NCBI RefSeq assembly: GCF_032191835.1
Contig: NC_083226.1
Span: forward strand, 125,426,001 to 125,490,000
Source: Heteronotia binoei
Taxonomy: Eukaryota
DNA: 64,000 nt
Direction: 5' to 3'
The translations under genes and the position numbers were made by a program. Below the pieces are notes generated by a model. That model was not told where the DNA came from, did not search any database, and saw only the letters and a program-made list of their open reading frames with translations. Of the stretch, positions 47,594 through 63,910 are shown piece after piece (position 1 is the first letter of the stretch; each line of letters starts with the position of its first letter).

Positions 47594-48114
47594 TGAATGT
47601 GCAAGATGGTCTAATCTGGTGTGATACTGAGCTGTACTTTCTCCTCTTTGTTGTATTGTTCAATGTCAACTTGTATGTAGTTTAAAGTATTTTCAAGTGC
47701 TAATGTTGCCTTTTCATAATCATTGCTGTCTCCTGTAACAGGTAGTGCGTAAAATGTAATAACATTGTCCTTTTGGTGGTGGGGTCAGCTTTCATTGCAA
47801 GAAATAAATGTTCCAGCCTTTCACACTTATGTTCTTATATGAGCCCCAATGTACTATTATGTTTATGGACTGGAAATTCAAAAAATGTAGAATATGTCAA
47901 AAACACAATTGCTCCATGAAATGTCATAGAAAATGGGGCAGTTCCCTCTTCTTTGGGAAAAAATTATCACTGCAGTTTTTCTGAATATTGTGGAAAGTTA
48001 TGTTGTAGCCCTGACTGAAGTTGTTGGGACAGAACATTTTGGAAATGGCTGTTACAGTATGTGGAATAAGTTGGCAAGCTAACATCTAAACTGTGTAAGC
48101 AGGAATGTAAGTAC

Positions 48115-48800
48115 GTAGTAAATGGACCCCCCCCCCATGAATTATTAATGAAGGTGGCGTAGTCAGTGACATCACTTCCAGTGACGTTACCGAAAACTGT
48201 GTCAACCCCCGCATAATTAATGAAGGGGTGTGGCCAGTGACATCACCAGAAACTGCGTCATCAAGGTCATGGCCCCAATGACATCACCCAGGTCATGACC
48301 CCAGAGTCACGTGACCAGAAATTGCGTCAAATGGGGATGGAAGTGACCTATTTTGGGGGCGCCACCATGATGTAGGTACTCTGCATATTTAATTAAACAC
48401 CTCCCACCAGGAGGTGGCCTGTCTAGCCCCACCCCCTAGCCCCGCCAATCACATATATGCCCCACCATGATGTAGGTACCCTGCATATTTAATTAATTAA
48501 GCATCTCCTCCAGGAAATGACCTTACTAACTCACACCACGTGGCATAGCCAATGAGTGTCTACATCCACCCCGCAGTAACGTAGCAACCCCACATATTAA
48601 TTGAGTAGACTGGAAATCACATGTGTAGCCCCCTCCCCTGCCCCCTTCTCCAGCACCACCTACTGCAGCATCATTGAACTTCCATCTGTGGCACCCCACC
48701 TCGGAAAATGGGGGCCACCACTGAGAATGTCTGAGTAGGCCCATGCAACCCCTCTAACAACACGCCCAGCCAATAGCAAAGGGGCTGGGGCCCACCCCAC
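48115..48800 (+). promoter_or_regulatory. Maverick left terminal region (probable TIR plus promoter) with ATF/CRE-like, POU-like, GC/CACCC and CCAAT motifs
   Basis: Repeated TGACATCA, TGACGT and TGCGTCA motifs; TAATGAA twice; GGGGTGTGG; CCAAT near 48446, 48549 and 48770; 35-bp direct repeat at 48362 and 48462. TIR length cannot be set without the right end. Confidence 0.7.
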
Positions 48801-48939
48801 CAGGTTATTTTAGGAAAGGAGGCATTTGTGCTTGAACACACGTGTACAGCCTCTTGCTGAGAACATAGAAATTCCTGCCAGACCCTTGGTACTTTTCAGC
48901 CTGCAGCCATTGGTGAGATAAAATTTTAAAAGGAGATAT

Positions 48940-49579
48940 ATGAGCAGTTCTGAGGATGAAGAATTTGTTCCCACGAAGCTCCATTTCCCGGGGCCTGTTT
49001 TTGATGAAGAGACACGCGTTACTATGAACAGCGGGGAGACAACAGCTGACATGCTAGCTAAAAATGGCGTTACCCATATTTTGCAAGGCCTTCTGGAAGA
49101 TTTCCCAGACACTCAGAAACTTATTCCCTATGGCAACCAGGTTTTCCAAGAGATTCCTGATTCCCAAGAGCTGATTCCAGGTGAGAACTCTATCGCACAG
49201 GTAATTTGGGAAAGGGGAAAAGGGTGGGGGAGTAGAAAAGGTTATTGGAAACAGGCTTTGCATAGTACTTTTAACTGAAAAAATCTGCTTTTAATTTTCT
49301 AGTATTCTTCCTGCATTGAGCCACAAATCCCAGATTTAAAATTGACTGATGCCATAGAGGAGAATATTCCTTTGGAGGAAAAGATCTCCATGCAGGTATG
49401 GACCCCAGTTGTTGAGTGTTGTGTGGTGGATGTGGGGCTTGTCAAGGCTTGTAAAACTAAAATAAATGCTGTCTTTTTAACAGGAACAGCAAAAAATTCC
49501 ATTTGGCTTAACACCTGGGGAACGAGTCATTGCCATGAGAAAGCTTTTAAACATGAACGTTTTTGAACATTCTGACTAA
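48940..49579 (+). CDS. Predicted three-exon Maverick accessory gene (48940-49200, 49303-49395, 49484-49579), 149-aa acidic protein of unknown function
   Basis: ATG at 48940; donors CAG|GTAATT (49201) and CAG|GTATGG (49396); acceptors TTTTCTAG| (49302) and TTTTTAACAG| (49483). All junctions are phase 0, there are no internal stops, and it ends TAA at 49577-49579. Splicing is inferred. Confidence 0.65.
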
Positions 49580-49606
49580 ATACCACCCCGAAAACGGAAA
49601 TCAGCA

Positions 49607-50035
49607 ATGTCATCATTAGTGCGTGCGGCTGTCTATTCAATAACAATGCATTGTATCAATGAATTTTTATATGAATCTTGTGAAGGATGTCAGCGTCAGT
49701 GGCCAGCATAGAAATCACATGTATGCGTTTCTTGGTCTGAACAAATAGTAGACCGCAAGGTGAAATTTGTTACAGATGAAATTTTGATACATTCAATAAT
49801 GCAAGTTGTGAACTTGATTGGCTATTCATTGAAATGTCTGCTCTTCATGCAAGAGAATATGGACCAGATATTTGATTTATTAAATAAAGTTGGAGACGCC
49901 TCAAATTCACGCAAAACTCTTGAAACAATTTTGAAGAACTCTGACAGTGCAATGGTTAAATATGTTCAAGGCTATATCAAAGATTTGCATTTTCGTTCAT
50001 TTTTTTCTGCGTCAGAAAAAATGGCATTTCTGTGA
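49607..50035 (+). pseudogene. Maverick accessory gene with a Cys/His motif (CEGCQRQWPA*KSHVC) and one premature stop
   Basis: ATG at 49607 is in frame with track ORF 49760-50035; single TAG at 49709-49711; AATAAA at 50040, 50079 and 50092 right after the stop. Confidence 0.7.
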
Positions 50036-50097
50036 TGTAAATAAAAGCGAGATTGCAGCTGCTTTTTACTGTTTTTGGAATAAACCTTGTAAATAAA
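50036..50097 (+). terminator. Cluster of three polyadenylation signals closing the left accessory unit
   Basis: AATAAA at 50040-45, 50079-84 and 50092-97; two are directly preceded by TGTA (UGUA). Confidence 0.7.
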
Positions 50098-51978
50098 AGG
50101 AACTATTTTAAAGAAACTAGTGTTGTTATTACATGCCCAGGCATGCCCCCATGAAATGAAGGGCTGGTGGTTGCAAGGGAGGAAGGAAGGGGGGCTGCAC
50201 TCTGATTAAATCTGGCAGCATTTTAAAATTCCTAGGATGGTTAGCCCTCATATTTACTGGCTGCTGTTTTAAAAAAAAAAGTTTGGGAAGGGAGAGCCTA
50301 ATTTTATATATATATATATTGCAGTGTATTCTGAAAAACTACTTACCCTCTTTCCCATGTGCTTCCTGAAAACATGACTGCTTCTTCTCTGAGATTGTGG
50401 GGAGGGGAGAAGAAGGGGGGAATTTTGCAGTCACATGGATGGAACCTGGTTACCTTTACAATTCATGCACAATTTCTATTGGATTAGCAAGTCACATGGA
50501 AGGGGGGAATCAATCACAGCTCTATTTCACACACAATAGTGGTCAGTTGTTAATTGAATTAGGCTGATTGGATCACATCCTTTTTGGCCAGAGGAGGAGG
50601 AGGTCAGACACATCTTTACCTTGAGGCTGCAGGTAAGCCATGTGTTACTCTTTTTTCTAAGTTATTAGAAATCAATACTTCATGTAATTTTGATTTAGGG
50701 GTGCTTAAAACAGACAAATTGTAGGCTTGTAAATTTGTGTTTGAATCCTTTTACTGCCTGTAAAGCAGCTGGTTTATGGCCTGTTTGTCCCAAGCATGCT
50801 TAATGGGAAGAAAAGGGGATCTACTCCTGTTTTTTAAATGTAACAGACATGTGCAAGCTGCAAGGATATTTAGCTACCCTTTATCGTGACTCTTTTGAAT
50901 GGCAGAGGTTTGTTTAATATATTTTATAATATGCTTTTTTTAAAAAGGCAGATTTCTTTCCTTTGACTGAAAATGAATGCCTGGGGGGGCAGGGAGGGGC
51001 GAGAGGAGCATGGGCTGTTTCAGTTTTTCTTGATTAGATTAAACGGCGAGTCAGATCCTTTTCCAGCTCACAGAGAGGCACTAAAGGGAGACTTTTTTAC
51101 CTTGAGGTGTTTGTTTGTCTTATGCTTCATAAACGGGGATAATAATTTAATGCTGGAAAAAGGTTTATTTGTGATCAGTCTTTTTCAATATTTTTTTGTA
51201 AATCTTAGGGGTGAAAAAGAACAAATATGGCAGAAGAAAAGTCTTCAAAAAACAAAGGTATATTTTGTATTCCTCTCTCAGTTTTAAAATTAGTTTGTGC
51301 TTGTTTTTATGAGGTGTGTGTGGTGGGGGATAATTTAAAAATGGGGTGGCTGCATTATATTTTATATTTTTTGCATTTTAATATGCAGGCCAGAAGAGGC
51401 CACATGGCTGTGAAACATATCGGACAATGATACACTCAAGAATACAATGTGGTAAATATTTGATTTGCCTTTGTGTGTGGGGTGGAGGCTGTTTTTCTGA
51501 ATGAATTTAAGTGTTTTTTCCTTTTTAAAAAACAAGTTTGTAATTTCATTTTGTGCTATAAGGGTGGGAGAGATGCCTATGAACCTAAAAGCAGATACTT
51601 ACAATCCTGGGGTTTTTTTTTATTGGACCAGCATGCCCCTGGCAAAGATGATGGTGGACCTTATAAAGAAAACATTCTTCCCTCATCCCTATTGGAAACC
51701 AAGAGATGCTTGAAACCACTGTCTGGTAAATTTTAAGTTTTGCTTAACTATTCTGGATTTTCATTTTAAAAGCAAGCTTAATGTTTAATTTTTATATGGT
51801 GAGGAAATGTTTTTTTTAACTTTGTACCTATGTGATAACTCTCCACTGTATATGAGAAAAGGCTCAAATCTGATGAAATACATGTGGGCTTTAAGCAAAA
51901 CATAGAAGGCCAGCAAACACTAGGGGGTGCTATGAAACACAAAAGAACCCTGAAAGTTGTTTATATGTATATATAAAG

Positions 51979-52488
51979 AAAACACACAAACCAAACTGAC
52001 TGTAAACACCTACAAAAGGATATTTTTGAACCACCCTCTAATAAACAGAAAATTGACAATGCTAATGTGGATGTGTCTTTTAGGGACAAATGTGAGCACA
52101 TGTTAAAATTCCTGGGGGCTACAACAGCTGGAATGCAAACACTTGCTGACCATGCAAACAGTTTTCAATCATTGGGTATAGACAGCTCCTGCAACCCCTT
52201 AATTGCTGCTTTTAAAGGCAGCCTTATGGGTTTCTGGAAAGGTTTTGAAATTATTTTACAAAGTGATTAAGGGAAAGGGGTGCAAGCCAGGTTAGAGGTT
52301 GTCAGCCCCGCATTAATATCACTACAGATGCACCTTTTAGCGAGATATGTGAGCATACGTTGAAATTGCTTGGCATTACAACAACTGCTGTGCAAATACT
52401 AAATGGCCAGGCCACAAGCTTTCATTCTTTGGGGCTAGATGGCTCTTGCAATCCCTTAAATGCTGCTTTAAAAGGCAGCCTCGTGGGT
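51979..52488 (+). pseudogene. Maverick coding segment with two tandem copies of a ~60-aa CEH...SCNPL module; copy 2 interrupted by CR1
   Basis: Copy 1 (52067-52270) DVSFRDKCEHMLKFLGATTAGMQTLADHANSFQSLGIDSSCNPLIAAFKGSLMGFWKGFEIILQS; copy 2 (52321-52488) DAPFSEICEHTLKLLGITTTAVQILNGQATSFHSLGLDGSCNPLNAALKGSLVG, resuming FWKCSERILQS at 53576. Confidence 0.7.
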
Positions 52489-52503
52489 GCTTTAAAAGGC
52501 AGC

Positions 52504-53575
52504 AGAGAGTGAGTATAAATGGGCAGTCTTCGCAGTGGAGGACGGTAAGCAGTGGGGTGCCACAGGGCTCGGTACTGGGTCCCATGCTCTTTAACTTGTT
52601 CATAAATGATTTAGAGTTGGGAGTGAGCAGTGAAGTGGCCAAGTTTGCGGATGACACTAAATTGTTCAGGGTGGTGAGAACCAGAGAGGATTGTGAGGAA
52701 CTCCAAAGGGATCTGTTGAGGCTGGGTGAGTGGGCGTCAACGTGGCAGATGCGGTTCAATGTGGCCAAGTGCAAAGTAATGCACATTGGGGCTAAGAATC
52801 CCAGCTACAAATACAAGTTGATGGGGTGTGAACTGGCAGAGACTGATCAAGAGAGAGATCTTGGGGTCATGATAGATAACTCACTGAAAGTGTCAAGACA
52901 GTGTGCGTTTGCAATAAAAAAGGCCAATGCCATGCTGGGAATTATTAGGAAGGGAATTGAAAACAAATCAGCCAGTATCATAATGCCCCTGTATAAATCA
53001 ATGGTGCGGTCTCATTTGGAGTACTGTGTGCAGTTCTGGTCGCCGCACCTCAAAAAGGATATTATAGCTTTAGAGAAGGTGCAGAGAAGGGCAACTAGAA
53101 TGATTAAAGGGCTGGAGCACTTTCCCTATGAAGAAAGGTTGAAACGCTTGGGACTCTTTAGCTTGGAGAAACGTCGACTGCGGGGTTACATGATAGAGGT
53201 TTACAAGATAATGCATGGAATGGAGAAAGTAGAGAAAGAAGTACTTTTCTCCCTTTCTCACAATACAAGAACTCGTGGGCATTCGATGAAATTGCTGAGC
53301 AGACAGGTTAAAACGGATAAAAGGAAGTACTTTTTCACCCAAAGGGTGATTAACATGTGGAATTCACTGCCACAGGAGGTGGTGGCGGCCACAAGTATAG
53401 CCACCTTCAAGAGGGGTTTAGATAAGAATATGGAGCACAGGTCCATCAGTGGCTATTAGCCACAGTGTATGTGTGTATATAACATTTTTTGCCACTGTGT
53501 GACACAGAGTGTTGGACTTGATGGGCCGTTGGCCTGATCCAACATGGCTTCTCTTATGTTCTTATGTTCTTATGT
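52504..53575 (+). mobile_element. 5'-truncated young CR1 LINE inserted in the Maverick
   Basis: Uninterrupted RT C-terminus (GVPQGSVLGPMLFNLFINDL, FADDTKL, YCVQFWSPHLKKDI, LFSLEKRRLRG) to the stop at 53459; 3' UTR ending in a (TTCTTATG)3 tail; CpGs retained. Confidence 0.95.
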
Positions 53576-53796
53576 TTCTGGAAATGTTCTGAAAGAATTT
53601 TACAAAGTTATACTGTATGCCCAAATGGGGGGGGGCCCTGCAGATAGGTGTGGGGCAGGTCAGAGGGCCTTGTCACGCACACCAAAGGAAAAGCAAGCAT
53701 TTGAAACTGAGAAAGGTTTGGCAAAGAGTCCTACAAAAGTGCTTCAAGAATGCAAAAAAGTTTAAATCTAGACAAAAAAGAAGTGACTCTCTTTAA

Positions 53797-56700
53797 AGGT
53801 TTTTTAGCAGAGTCAGGGCCTCTGAGAGATCAAATGTTAACACAGGTAATGGTGCCTCTCTCAGCACAGAGGTAGAGCCTGTCACCACCTCCATTTTGCC
53901 AAATAACAATGCAGTCCCTGTCTCTGAGTGTCCAAATGATAATTCAGTTCATGGTTCCCCTCTCAGCGCAGATGTAGAGCCTGTTGCCACCTCCAATTTG
54001 CCAAATAACAATGCTGCTGCTGAACAAGGCCCCTCATCACCCCCACAAAAACTGTCCCCTAGCCCTGACACTCCAAAGGTTAACCTAGAAAAAGTTGGAG
54101 AGTGGGAACGACATCTTGCAAACTTGCCAATGGATCAGTATTCAGAGGCCTTCAGGTTTGTAAACTTAGAGCAGTTAAGCCACCCCGTCCTCATACAACA
54201 GGCAATACAGGGCCTTCTTAATGATATGAAAGCCAGAGTCCAGGATGGTGATTTAGTACAGCTCCATATAAATGAGGCGGGCCTAAGCAGTGCCCTGCAT
54301 TCTGTAGGGAGGCCCGTGGGTGGCAAATCTCATGCAGAATAATGTCGAAATTGATCTTCATGGCACCCTGCACTTAATTATGACGGTAATAAGGAATAGA
54401 GGGGGGAGAGGGAAGAGAGTTATAAGTACTGTCCTCTATAGTGAAGTTATCAAAAAGAAGCAGCTGCATTTATTAAAACCAGATCATGGCAATCGTATTC
54501 TTTGCTTTGGCATAAGCCTCACTGGTGTTATGTCAAAGACGTTGGTAGCCATCCCCAAATTTACAGAAAGGGCATGGCTGTTGTACAGAGAGCTTGGGTT
54601 TTCAGATGAGCAGGAGATATTATCGGATGTTGCCACCTTTGAAAAGCATTTAAAGGTAAAATATAGCTGTGGTATTGAATGGTGGTAAAGGTTGGGAAAT
54701 TTTTATGGAATAATTAATTTGAAAGGGTTTTATGGAAAGAAACATTATTGTCAGGTTTGTGGTGATATTTATAGCCATTCACACCTGTGTAAATACAGCT
54801 GTCACATGTGCTTGGACCCTAAATGTAGTCCTCAGCAAGAGGTAAAAAGCAATAACTGCAAAGTATATTGTAAATCCTGGATCTGCCTTGAAGAACACAG
54901 GGATGTGCCAGACATCTGCAAAACCAAAATATATTGTAAATCATGCCAATCCTATGCTCCAAAGAAAAACACTTGCCGTGTTCGCTGGTGTAAGCAATGC
55001 AAAGAGCCTGTTGGGGATATAAATAGCCACCGCTGTTTCATGCCTCCTCTTAAAAAGGTTGAAATTGGCAACAATTATATTTTTTATGATTTTGAATGTA
55101 TGCAAGAGACTGGCATACTTATTCCAAATTATATCTATGCAATGGGGCTAGAGGAAAGTGATACCTGGGAATTCAAAGGAGAGGGCTGTGTGTCAAGCTT
55201 TGTTAAAAAAATCATCAACAACAAATTCAAGAATTATAACTTCCTAGCGCATAATGCAAAGGGGTATGATAATTACTTTATCATTAGGCAATTATTAGGA
55301 GAAAAGATGGAAGTTGACCTTCTTACGCAAGGGGGGAAGCTCATGTGCATCACAGTTAAGAAGCTAGGCATCAGATTTCTGGATAGCTTAAACTTCTTGC
55401 CAATGAAGCTGGCCAAATTGCCGCAGGCCATGGGCTTCTCTGGATGTAAGGGGTTCTTCCCCCATTACTTTAACACTGATGCTAATTGGGAGTATGTTGG
55501 GACAATGCCTAGGATGGAGGATTATGGTGTTGATAGCATGATGAAGGGTGAGAAAGCAGTTTTTTCCTGGTACATGGAGAACAAAAACAATGAATTTAAC
55601 CTACAAAAAGATCTGGCCTATTATTGTCAACAGGATGTTAAAATCCTGAGAAAGGCCTGTCTCTTGTACAGGGAGGAAATTATATCCATGTCAGGAATTG
55701 ACCCCTTTAACCACATAACTCTCAATGGGGTGTGCATGGCAACATATAGGCACATGTTTTTGAAATCTGATACAATTGCCCTCCTGCCACATGACCATTA
55801 CCACAGGCAAGAAAAGCGTTTTTCAACCCCATCCATATAGTGGCTAATGTATATCGAGCACAAGGAGGGTCTCCAGACATAGCATGCCCTGAGTCCGCTT
55901 GCGGAGAGGGCGGGATATAAATGCAAAGTAATAAATAAATAAATTAATAAATAAAATAAAGGTGGCAAGCTAAAAGCAGGAAATTATTTTCTTGATGGTT
56001 ATGCGGTGGTTGGGGGGTAGCCAACAACCTTTGAATTTAATGGGTGCTTTTTCCATGGTTGCCCCACATGCTACAGCCCCAGTGATAGAAACCCATTGAC
56101 AGATTCATCCTTTGCTGACTTACACTATAGAACCCTGAGGAAAGAAAGTTACCTGAAAAGCCAGGGATATGCTGTGGGAACACGAGTGGAGGGAGATGGT
56201 GACAGCTGACAGGGAGCTTGGAGGCTTTCTGAGTGAGAAGAAATTTCCATCACTGCTGCTCCCTAGAGATGCTCTATTTGGGGGGGCAGAACAAATGCCA
56301 TTTGCTTCTATTACAATGCTGAAGCTGGTGAAAAAATACATTACTATGATTTCACCAGCCTGTACCCTTTTGTCAACAAGACAAAGAAATATCCAATTGG
56401 ACACTCCCAAATTATTTATAAGGACTTTGCCCCAGTATCTGAATACTTTAGCCTGGTCAAACTGAAGGTGGTGCCACCTCAAGGTCTCTTTTTCCCTGTA
56501 TTACCCTACAAGGTGGAAGGCAAACACATGTGCAGAGACTAAGCAACAAGAGCATTGTATGCATTCTTCACTGAAAGAGTGCTAGAAGGCGTGTGGTGCA
56601 CAGTGGAACTGATGAAGGCCCTCAAGAAGGGGTATCAGATCATGTCTATTAGTGAGGTGTGGCATTTTGAGGAAAGCTCTGAAGACCTGTTTTCTGAATA

Positions 56701-57531
56701 CATTAAAGTGCACCTCCACCAAAAACAGGAGTCTTCTGACTATCCTAGCTGGTGTACAGATGAGGGGGAAAGGGCCAAATACATACAGGATTACCTAGAG
56801 AAAGTTGCATTCTGAACACTTAGCTGTCAATCCTGCAAAGAGGCAGATTGCAAAATTATTTTTAAATTCCTTGTGGGGCAAGTTTGGCCAGCGTTCAAAC
56901 TTGGTAAACACTACCATAGTGAGGGATGCTACCAAGCTTCTAGAATTTGCCTTTTCTCCAGCATATGATGTGTCAGGGTTTGAGATAATTGATGATGAAA
57001 CAGCAAGCGTGTCCTGGAAACACACAAAAGATACAATTACCTTATTTGGCAACACGAATGTTCTGATTGCCTGTTTTACAACATCCTATGCATGGTTAGA
57101 ATTGTATAAAATTTTAGATAGGCTGCAAGACCCATTCAGTCATTTTTGTCAGTAGGGAGGGGGATTTTATTCCAGCTCTGAGATTATTTAGGAGATCTCA
57201 CATCTGAACTCCCACCAGATGAGCATATCACAGAGTTCACATCAGCAGGTCCTAAAACCTATGGTTACAAATTGTCAGGTGGAAAGGTGTACATGAAAGC
57301 CAAAGGCATCACCCTCAACGTTAAAAAATTAACTTTAACACCTTGAAGGACCTGGTCTTAGATTACACTGCCGAGCAGGCATCTAAAGAGATCACAGTCC
57401 AGCAACCCTCCATCATAAGGAAAAAGAATCAGTGGTTTATTGAGACAGGGCCACTTAAGAAAACCCTCAAAGTTGTTTATGATAAGAGGGTCCTTGTGGA
57501 CAAAAACAGAACATTGCCACATGGTTTTTAA
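53797..57531 (+). pseudogene. pPolB: Protein-primed family B DNA polymerase (pPolB), fragmented
   Basis: Cys-rich N-terminal region; ExoI YIFYDFE, ExoII AHNAKGYD, FLDSLNFLPMKL, ExoIII YCQQDVKIL; inserted FEFNGCFFHGCPTC domain; motif A YDFTSLYP (~56350); motif B KLFLNSLWGKFGQR (~56850); KTYG; C-terminal LPHGF*. Many stops and frameshifts; the motif C YxDTD appears deleted near 57130. 5' limit uncertain. Confidence 0.95.
55885..55960 (+). mobile_element. L2/SINE 3'-tail fragment inserted in pPolB
   Basis: GCCCTGAGTCCGCTTGCGGAGAGGGCGGGATATAAAT plus an (AAAT)n tail; the same family occurs inverted at about 41765-41822. It splits the polB HAL/GG junction. Confidence 0.8.
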
Positions 57532-57532
57532 A

Positions 57533-58222
57533 ATGGATGTATGGTGGAAACATCCATTTTCTGCAGTACTGGCAGGGCCTAGCAATTGTGGCAAGAGCAT
57601 CTTTGTAAAAAGTATTTTGGACAATGCTCAACATATGCTTTCTGTATCACCTGATAATGTCATATGGTTTTATAGTTGTTGGCAGAATCTGTATGACAAA
57701 ATCCTCTGTAAATTCATGTCTGTAAAGTTTGTTGAAGGGCTGCCTGAAACCCTAAATGATAATCAACTGTTACCCACTAAGAAAGTAAGTCTGATTATAG
57801 TGGATGATTTGATGGACTCTGCTTGTCAATACCCTGAAATTGAGAGAGCCTTTACCAAATATGTGCATCATCGAAATCTGAGCGTTATATTTATTACTCA
57901 GAATATTTTCTTTTGTGGAAAAAGCACCAGAACCATAAGCTTAAATACAGAATACCTGGTTCTGTTTAAAAACCCCAGGGACAAATTACAGATTGCTACT
58001 CTGGCCTGCCAAATGTACCCGGGGAAGTCCCAATTCTTTCTGGAGGCCTTTGAGGATGCAACACAAAAATTTTATGGGTATCTGGTGGTGGTTTTAAATG
58101 TGTGCATACCAGATTCATTGAGGTTAAGAACAAGGCTTTTCCTGCCCCAGAGGGCTGCTGCATATGTCTTAAAAACAAAACAAGCACCCAGTGGGCACAA
58201 AATGAAACAGACGGTACACTAA
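57533..58222 (+). CDS. ATP: FtsK/HerA-family genome packaging ATPase (open frame, 229 aa)
   Basis: MDVWWKHPFSAVLAGPSNCGKS (Walker A), LIIVDDLM (Walker B), HHRNLSVIFITQN, LFKNPRD, YGYLVV; starts 2 nt after the polB stop. Confidence 0.93.
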   Translation: MDVWWKHPFSAVLAGPSNCGKSIFVKSILDNAQHMLSVSPDNVIWFYSCWQNLYDKILCKFMSVKFVEGLPETLNDNQLLPTKKVSLIIVDDLMDSACQYPEIERAFTKYVHHRNLSVIFITQNIFFCGKSTRTISLNTEYLVLFKNPRDKLQIATLACQMYPGKSQFFLEAFEDATQKFYGYLVVVLNVCIPDSLRLRTRLFLPQRAAAYVLKTKQAPSGHKMKQTVH

Positions 58223-62876: not shown

Positions 62877-63910
62877 CTATATAGGATCACAGAGTTGAGA
62901 AGCAGGAACCCAGCTGTTAAATTTATCAGGCCACCCTAACCACTTCACTAGATGTTGTTTTCTCTTCCCCCTGCCTTTGGAGGCTAAGATTTTCTGAATT
63001 TGATACACTCTGTCTGCTTTACTCTTAACTTTTTGTAACACTTCAGGATAGAATGAGCCTATGAGGGGGTCTCTGGCATAATCTTTTGAGCAAGTACACA
63101 GGCCTTTGCCTCTACAGATGACCTGCTCTACTATAAATAGTTCATCTGTGAAGCCCCATTCATATCCTTTTACAAAAACTTCTTTGCTTTTAGACACACG
63201 CACATGATCTCCTTTTCTAATGAAAGGCCTCTCCTTTACATTTGCCCCAACACAGTCTCTGTAAAACGTTTTCCACATGGTATGAGCGTTGGTGTGGTTT
63301 ACATCCACAGAACGGGCTCTGATTGTCCTGTGAAAGCTGTGGTTGTAACTTTTAATAAGCAGCTGCAGCACGTCAATATATCTGAAGGTGTTGTTGGCAG
63401 TAAAATACCTTCACATTTTTATTTTTAATGTTCAATTGAAGCTCTCCACAATAGCCGCTTTGACTTCATTATGGGTATAAAAGTGGTGGACTCTGTGTTG
63501 CTTTAACACGCTGCTTACAGACTAGTTTAGAAGCTCTATACCTGCATCAATCTGAAGCTTGGCAGGTATTCTGCGTTGTTTGAAAATTTCCTTAAGGGCT
63601 TCTGACACCCTCCCCCCTGTCTTGTTTTTTAAGGTCAAAGCCCAGGCATATTTAGACAATATGTCAACCACTGTTAAAATGTACTTGTAGCCATCATGGT
63701 CTTGTTTCTCTTAAAGTGGACGCGGGCTTGCTTATGCAGTGTATAAGCATCTTGCTCTGAAAGCCAGTTAGTAACATGATTTTAAGTGAGAGCTTTACAC
63801 TGCTTTTTGGCTGCGTGGAAGAGAGGCCTCACCCTGCCAAAGCTCCCTGCTTCTCCGGGTGTATAATACATGTGACTTAAGACCTCCTCTTCATCAGCTG
63901 CCCCCATCAT
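62877..63910 (-). pseudogene. INT: Retroviral-like integrase with C-terminal chromodomain
   Basis: YYTPGEAGSFG..QDAYTLHK..YKYILTVVDILSKYAWA..LQIDAG..AIVESFN..YNHSFHRTI..KGYEWGFTDELF..GSFYPE; chromodomain YQIQKIL..HLVKWLGWPDKFNSWVP. Several stops; the segment carrying the first catalytic Asp is missing. Confidence 0.92.

Follow-up and report, generated by a model that had tools for sequence, protein, structure and literature searches.

Adjoining the left terminal inverted repeat of a decayed Maverick in Heteronotia binoei is a spliced, acidic accessory gene that is almost certainly real, and of which the window (the whole stretch of DNA analysed here, 64,000 nucleotides of contig NC_083226.1) holds a pseudogene copy. 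We lean toward the view that the product of this decayed three-exon gene was a nuclear adaptor that shifts the cell-cycle or transcription state of the host. An earlier sequence-only reading of the window had already proposed such a gene next to the left repeat, and the proposal is supported by sister copies of the element, by the RefSeq model P0006, by an RNA joint and by the match between the terminal repeats; equally supported is its claim that an annotation based only on open reading frames misses this intron-containing gene.

The host Maverick spans ~17.3 kb, from near 48114 to a point 1.44 kb past the right edge of the window (in locus L094). It carries (AGT)2 ends and a 6-bp target duplication, the left end and the duplication having one mismatch each, and the AGTAGT terminus is present in 19 of 29 sisters. 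Its left repeat contains what we take to be CCAAT boxes (48275, 48445, 48549 and 48770), as well as motifs that presumably correspond to ATF/CRE-like and E-box-like elements. At the places expected for integrase, capsid proteins and protease, Pfam matched only a chromodomain, which we read as the integrase C-terminus; our naming of the integrase, capsid and protease ORFs goes by place and is likewise an assumption. An RT-bearing insertion at ~52490-53573 interrupts the window copy and is absent from the sisters. A further multi-exon gene probably occupies 51228-53800 of the plus strand, with a short first exon, a donor at 51258 and an acceptor near 51389, both of which are seen in several sisters; ~240 nt are missing from the window at 51975 within this candidate, which may be a separate gene or a spliced 5′ part of PolB.

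A DNA search for sister copies gave 155 candidates, the best 40 of which were scored at 88-100% identity; the sisters are ~90% identical among themselves and 89% identical to the window. The alignment used for all counts below comprises the window and 38 sisters, namely 24 of L002-L030 and 14 of L031-L060. Left out were L006, L021, L025, L026 and L028 from the former set (truncated, rearranged or duplicate) and repeat places, duplicates or partial copies from the latter. Some copies (L068, L069 and L032/L033) look like head-to-head inverted duplications in which the gene is present twice, a few kb apart.

Table 1. Features of the window element and of related elements. Positions are those of the window unless a locus is named.
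Feature	Position	Strand	Evidence or remark
Left terminal inverted repeat, ~820 bp	48114..48917		82% match to right repeat (in L094)
Family start codon, lost in window copy	48865..48867	+	In-frame start in 34/38 sisters
Coding exon 1, 112 codons in sisters	48865..49200	+	Pro-rich start, acidic low-complexity region
Intron 1, phase 0, GT..AG, G-rich tract of variable length	49201..49302	+	Sisters, P0006, L127
Exon 2, 31 codons, acidic linker	49303..49395	+	RNA contig begins exactly at 49303
Intron 2, phase 0, GT..AG	49396..49483	+	Sisters, RNA contig, P0006, divergent families
Exon 3, ~180 codons	49484..50035	+	Predicted all-helical domain; stops 49577-79 and 49709-11 in this copy
Three candidate AATAAA polyadenylation signals	50040, 50079, 50092 (50040..50097)	+	Sequence match
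Protein-primed PolB fragment, core gene	54806..55840	+	Pfam PF03175, E=1.9e-19
Packaging ATPase	57479..58222	+	Pfam Pox_A32, E=6.9e-5, just above Pfam cut-off
Chromodomain-bearing ORF	62877..63278	-	Pfam Chromo, E=2.2e-9
Second spliced acidic gene, starting in right repeat	L094:669-1	-	~150 + 39 codons
L061 element	G000:C11:6411500-6421400, neighbours L073/L074; also L062-L069, L071, L072, L095-L106

The sequence-only reading had assembled the gene from three segments, 48940-49200, 49303-49395 and 49484-49579, and these do translate into 87+31+31 aa with every junction in phase 0, across introns of 102 and 88 nt that begin with GT and end with AG. Its outer boundaries, in contrast, do not belong to the family: none of the 38 sisters has the start codon at 48940, and none has the stop at 49577-79. 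The supposedly stop-free 149-aa product is thus a piece of the protein, delimited by changes that the window copy alone carries and lacking the conserved domain. The family start lies 75 nt before 48940, inside the terminal inverted repeat, which contains the first 17 codons of the gene; a start at the same position is also present in the diverged copy L127 and in the window element's own right repeat, and the G. japonicus model P0007 (XP_015263967.1) begins in the same way as the sisters. Two further in-frame stops mark the window copy, at 48919-21 (seen in one of 38 sisters) and at 49709-11 (in none). In the family, exon 3 remains open for ~180 codons towards the AATAAA at 50040, the gene ending at ~50020-50035 with a product of ~320 aa; the frame of the final few codons varies between copies at a T-run. 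Because the start and stop first read are private, the family start lies at 48865 and extra stops are present, the gene comprises ~112+31+180 codons, and the window holds not the intact gene that had been claimed but a pseudogene with premature stops and no family start codon.

A stop-free join says little in itself, because 411 GT-AG paths with two introns can be drawn from 48940 without meeting a stop; sites that resemble the consensus at all four positions occur in only one of the 411, the path chosen in the first reading. Alignment of the other copies shows the splice dinucleotides retained, at donor 1 in 36 of 38 sisters and at acceptor 1, donor 2 and acceptor 2 in 37 of 38 each, a conservation that among 89%-identical copies is largely shared descent. 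The G-runs near the donors are homopolymer tracts that differ in length among copies. The RefSeq model P0006 (XP_060111165.1, Heteronotia binoei, 269 aa), a predicted model that begins at the second Met and is the closest named protein to the window gene, has the same two junctions. At greater distances, L127, an older subfamily copy with 66% DNA identity in exon 1, keeps the start and donor 1 at the same positions, its exon gaps being 3, 3 and 51 nt. Members of the L061 family, with 27% amino acid identity, contain one phase-0 GT-AG intron located 64 codons before the CxxC, as compared to 65 here, and this intron is present in 11 of 11 copies examined. An older third copy, L070 (~42% identity), has an acceptor at the place homologous to that of intron 2, the only informative site in this copy because its upstream exons have been lost to insertions. 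Its last exon is split by a ~530-bp insertion (L070:1813-2340) with short inverted ends and an 8-bp duplication, which we take to be hAT-like. L129, considered as a diverged family member, turned out to be an ordinary one.

RNA evidence comes from X1, a single run of contigs possibly with DNA included, and it bears out one of the two joints: one contig skips intron 2, but the junction 49200/49303 is not seen in X1. The contig that skips intron 2 jumps 89 nt and has one extra letter at the joint, which makes a net skip of 88 nt, and by our reading the one-letter offset fits the letters that end exon 2 in several sisters. Depth falls to 0.75-0.77 in both intron-centred bins, as against 4.8, 10.6 and 27-56 over the exons. 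One contig extends 17 nt into intron 1, and the contig that starts at exon 2 is preceded by 29 letters unrelated to exon 1, which may come from a host exon joined to the element by splicing or from an intron end that has diverged. On the young L061 family X1 gave no joints, and one contig spans its intron unspliced.

The pattern of substitutions indicates purifying selection on the coding frame while the element spread. Counted per column against the commonest codon, with CpG sites excluded, pN/pS is 1.00 for private variants (94 synonymous, 349 non-synonymous or stop), 0.52 for variants found in 2-3 copies and 0.42 for those in at least 4 copies (18 synonymous, 28 non-synonymous, no stops). 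Private variants and variants in at least 4 copies differ with a Fisher p of 0.009, which is approximate because shared variants are not independent. Such a pattern would be expected from purifying selection during spread followed by neutral decay once a copy has inserted. Indels per kb per copy number 0.8-1.9 in the exons, 21.6 in intron 1 and 3.2 in intron 2, a comparison weakened by homopolymers and neutral decay: the excess of intron over exon indels that the sequence-only reading had proposed as a test is found in intron 1, though mostly in homopolymer runs, but not in intron 2, which is near the exon rate.

The conserved part of the protein is encoded by exon 3. When this exon of a sister (P0004) was used as the query, 49 proteins were found at E<=0.001 among 1.84 billion representatives, and the 23 for which names were obtained come from geckos (three families), a skink, a cordylid, an anguid, four iguanians, turtles, gar and sturgeon; the named homologs are mostly "uncharacterized" and often multi-copy. 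Only C66, C69, H79 and C81 are nearly invariant columns across the 49 homologs, and 40 of them have the CxxC (one, not two) plus the HxC, which in the window lie at 49679-49726 as CxxC-x9-HxC. AlphaFold2 predicts an all-helical domain with a pLDDT of 92.5 and a pTM of 0.87, and judging by the motif this domain would bind one zinc ion. Thus modelled with confidence, the C-terminal domain appears to be without a clear fold match. Pfam searches of the three exons, of sister exons and of 50 aligned members found nothing above the curated cut-off for the domain, NCBIfam had no match for it, and the best hit of a PDB sequence search had an E of 0.06. Foldseek of the domain against PDB and viral sets gave no match at E<=0.001, and the best row of the wide VIA structure search had a Z of 5.8. 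Two candidate relatives were rejected, the herpesvirus ORF57/ICP27 fold on account of weak Foldseek rows (TM 0.14-0.16) and a HEAT/PDS5-type identity on account of ESM Atlas clusters at 0.91-0.93 with low feature counts and TM <=0.43, a generic helical likeness. Among 3380 candidates no longer or fused homolog was found, which is weak evidence. Sea turtles and tortoises have divergent homologs (P0039, P0065-P0069) for which isoforms are annotated and which form clusters as large as 20 members, possibly a domesticated copy; a gar homolog (P0046/P0091) bears the name "ERCC-6-like isoform X2", probably a mis-assigned gene model.

Ahead of this domain, the N-terminal half carries short motifs that vary among lineages. 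In the window, exon 1 includes a basic/CK2-type motif, KRxY[IV]S-SSEDEE, at 48928-48963, and four CK2 acceptor sites, a motif of low specificity in acidic sequence; a basic PPRKRK-type motif lies at 49583-49600 in exon 3. Among the 25 homologs with long N-termini (at least 50 aa), KRxY[IMVL]S..S..D/E is found in 10, RxL(x)F in 7 and both in none, the basic/CK2-type motif marking one subgroup and RxL-F plus SP/TP another. Such short linear motifs can arise by chance in acidic low-complexity sequence, and they may serve import/CK2 and cyclin docking. The repeated PDTQ/PDSQ unit described in the first reading is real: exon 1 has two PD[TS]QxLIP units, at 49105-49128 and 49156-49179, that lie 17 codons apart; they arose when a stretch of 17 codons was duplicated in place, and the older subfamily copy L127 does not have this duplication. 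The suggestion that they might be ATM/ATR-type sites fares poorly as a family trait. An SQ/TQ cluster is defined by three or more conserved S/TQ in ~100 aa, and at least three are present in only 2 of the 25 homologs with long N-termini; the counts are 4 in P0005 and P0006, 3 in P0007 and 2 in the window copy. The window gene lacks LxCxE, as had been observed, and so do P0001, P0005 and P0006; any LxCxE occurs in 3 of the 49 homologs, at unaligned places, and the CR1-like motif (DEN)(LIMV)xx(LM)(FY) is matched by none of the 49.

A gene of similar construction faces inward from the other end. The start codon also persists in the right repeat of the window element, where it opens a different gene, likewise acidic; this one has a phase-0 intron and ends in a short Cys-rich exon, and it contains RQL(E/V)F as well as LWCIY ahead of an acidic run. 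Across 19 sisters its start is conserved in 19, its donor in 17 (one via an alignment shift) and its acceptor in 18; the copy in the window element, just right of the window, is frameshifted. A relative of the left gene is encountered in the L061 family, a 15.4-kb non-autonomous Maverick-type element with 5.5-kb inverted repeats that hold retroelement fragments. There are 115 candidates, the best 40 of which were scored and are 99-100% alike, and target duplications of 6 bp are perfect in the 4 of 4 copies examined. All that is seen in its 4.4-kb core is the zinc-motif gene, a Bcl-2 homolog (PF00452, E=6e-22) and an acidic gene, which has intron-like GT-AG segments and faces inward from the right repeat; no core protein of the window was matched in the element by tblastn. 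The terminal repeats of the window family and of the L061 family have no detectable DNA similarity.

These observations suggest a mechanism in which the terminal repeat would supply a Pol II promoter to the inward-facing gene at each end (a sigma-70 promoter scan was disregarded as irrelevant to such a promoter), the left gene being the first inside its repeat and upstream of PolB. Host splicing would remove the two phase-0 introns, leaving a ~320-aa product with a predicted acidic, low-complexity, motif-bearing N-terminal half followed by a helical domain that zinc would stabilize. The N-terminal motifs might engage nuclear import, kinases or cyclin-CDK, and the zinc domain might bind a host protein, such that the product, with no use of LxCxE, would tilt the cell-cycle or transcription state of the host in the element's favour. 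We infer host manipulation and regard a host-directed nuclear regulator as the better-than-even description of the left gene's product.

An unlikely alternative accepts the spliced gene and directs its product to the element's own terminal repeats, where it would bind DNA as a regulator or assist replication as a cofactor. Helical parts of TnpB/Fanzor/Cas12f, presumably their REC lobes, are among the top structural rows (Z 5.8, 5.7, 5.2, 4.9, 4.9 and 4.8), basic patches lie on either side of the domain, and the gene is retained in a recently spreading non-autonomous element. However, these rows fall below a Z of 8 with an rmsd of 3.4-5.1 A over 77-99 residues and are interleaved with unrelated proteins, no better than the noise among helical bundles; moreover, the terminal repeats of the two families have no detectable similarity in DNA, and the cyclin-docking-like motifs suggest host partners. 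Somewhat less probable again is a role in counter-defence, with the product as an adaptor that would bring in a host ubiquitin ligase or else interfere with silencing or with the sensing of DNA damage. Vif and E4orf6 are zinc-binding adaptors of this kind, and a Cys/His zinc site on a helical scaffold, the S/TQ-E units of a gecko subgroup and the neighbouring anti-apoptotic gene in the young element would all agree with it; against it, Pfam, PDB, Foldseek and VIA found neither a sequence nor a fold match to such adaptors, and S/TQ clusters are confined to the two homologs noted above.

The introns themselves, being of the spliceosomal type typical of host genes, raise the thought that a captured host gene rides as passive cargo and inherited them, and a resident host gene could be represented by the turtle homologs, for which isoforms are annotated and clusters of 11 and 20 members exist. 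This we consider improbable, given that shared variants are under purifying selection, that each of the two terminal repeats has the start codon as part of its own sequence, that the named homologs are multi-copy uncharacterised loci with no Pfam family, and that the unnamed models P0024 and P0033, near the turtle proteins, run (as read by eye) into PolB-like sequence. Least credible of all is the idea that open frames in a decayed element happen to join up, which the 411 stop-free paths and the missing RNA support for junction 1 would allow. It is already largely refuted by the rarity of paths with four consensus-like sites and by the agreement of the RefSeq model, the RNA joint and the intron conserved across divergent families. 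The host-directed regulator, rather than any of these, is the reading we carry forward. A wider picture, tentative and in our judgment rather less probable than the reading on which it builds, is that reptile Mavericks have adenovirus-style spliced early regions, in which each repeat would give the promoter and the start of an inward, intron-containing regulator. The left gene would then found a family of helical zinc-binding proteins not described before, with an old conserved intron and a coupling to cyclin-CDK that does without LxCxE; such regulators would be of enough use for a young 15.4-kb element to spread with nothing but them and a Bcl-2 homolog.

Published descriptions present vertebrate Mavericks as free of introns, and most of their accessory regions lack annotation. 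Conserved introns mean that the elements depend on host splicing and that maps of open reading frames alone miss or truncate accessory genes. Many anonymous reptile gene models are now tied to a single family carried by Mavericks, whose domain is predicted well but has found no match; for example, the RefSeq models P0006 and P0007, which belong to this family, are listed as anonymous host loci under the name "uncharacterized protein", with neither a Maverick link nor a domain. This family link makes the dealings of endogenous Mavericks with the host cell a testable question, and the two-ended layout shared with adenoviruses bears on the origin of the early regulatory regions of small DNA tumour viruses.

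The adenovirus E1 and E4 early regions consist of spliced, acidic, motif-rich genes facing inward from each repeat, and E1A has a zinc-binding module. The Maverick gene resembles E1A as a spliced acidic gene adjoining the left terminal repeat, with an inward gene at each end and a predicted zinc module; it differs in the lack of LxCxE, in its zinc ligands and in its folded domain, which is C-terminal and ~140 aa. The proposed likeness to E1A stands for position and architecture, not for detected homology: Pfam, PDB sequence, Foldseek and VIA searches found no match to E1A in sequence or fold, a result compatible with a remote relationship.

Among mobile elements, the window copy is like the vertebrate Mavericks of Barreat and Katzourakis (2021, PMC8097293) in its ~17 kb length, terminal repeats, (AGT)2 ends and 6-bp target duplication, as well as in its two inward-facing core modules with accessory regions on both flanks. 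In the accessible text of that paper, intact elements are defined by eight core ORFs, no introns are observed in their genes and the accessory genes are not characterised; in contrast to this description, the accessory genes here have GT-AG introns at both ends. Introns of other kinds are on record in related elements, as group I introns in protist PLVs (PMC12220804) and as introner insertions in dinoflagellate polintoviruses (PMC12166617), according to the accessible parts of both papers. The accessible literature (including PMC11071296, PMC9341512 and PMC6431247) yielded neither spliced accessory genes nor such a non-autonomous element in reptile Mavericks, although subscription papers, Repbase/Dfam and supplements could hold one. 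The closest parallel in adintoviruses, from the text of Starrett et al. (2021, PMC8502044), is their "Oncoid" genes, which are placed upstream of PolB and defined by motifs, and Bcl2 homologs are reported there as well; the main text of that paper holds 0 matches for "splic". The window gene is like an Oncoid in its place upstream of PolB, its CK2-type acidic motif and a cysteine pair suited to metal, and unlike one in having no LxCxE or CR1 and a single CxxC plus HxC within a long helical domain; the right-end gene is closer to Oncoid in its motifs than the left gene is. By the motifs tested, the left gene falls outside both the Oncoid and the E1A families, yet it appears to be placed and built like an early regulator of that kind.
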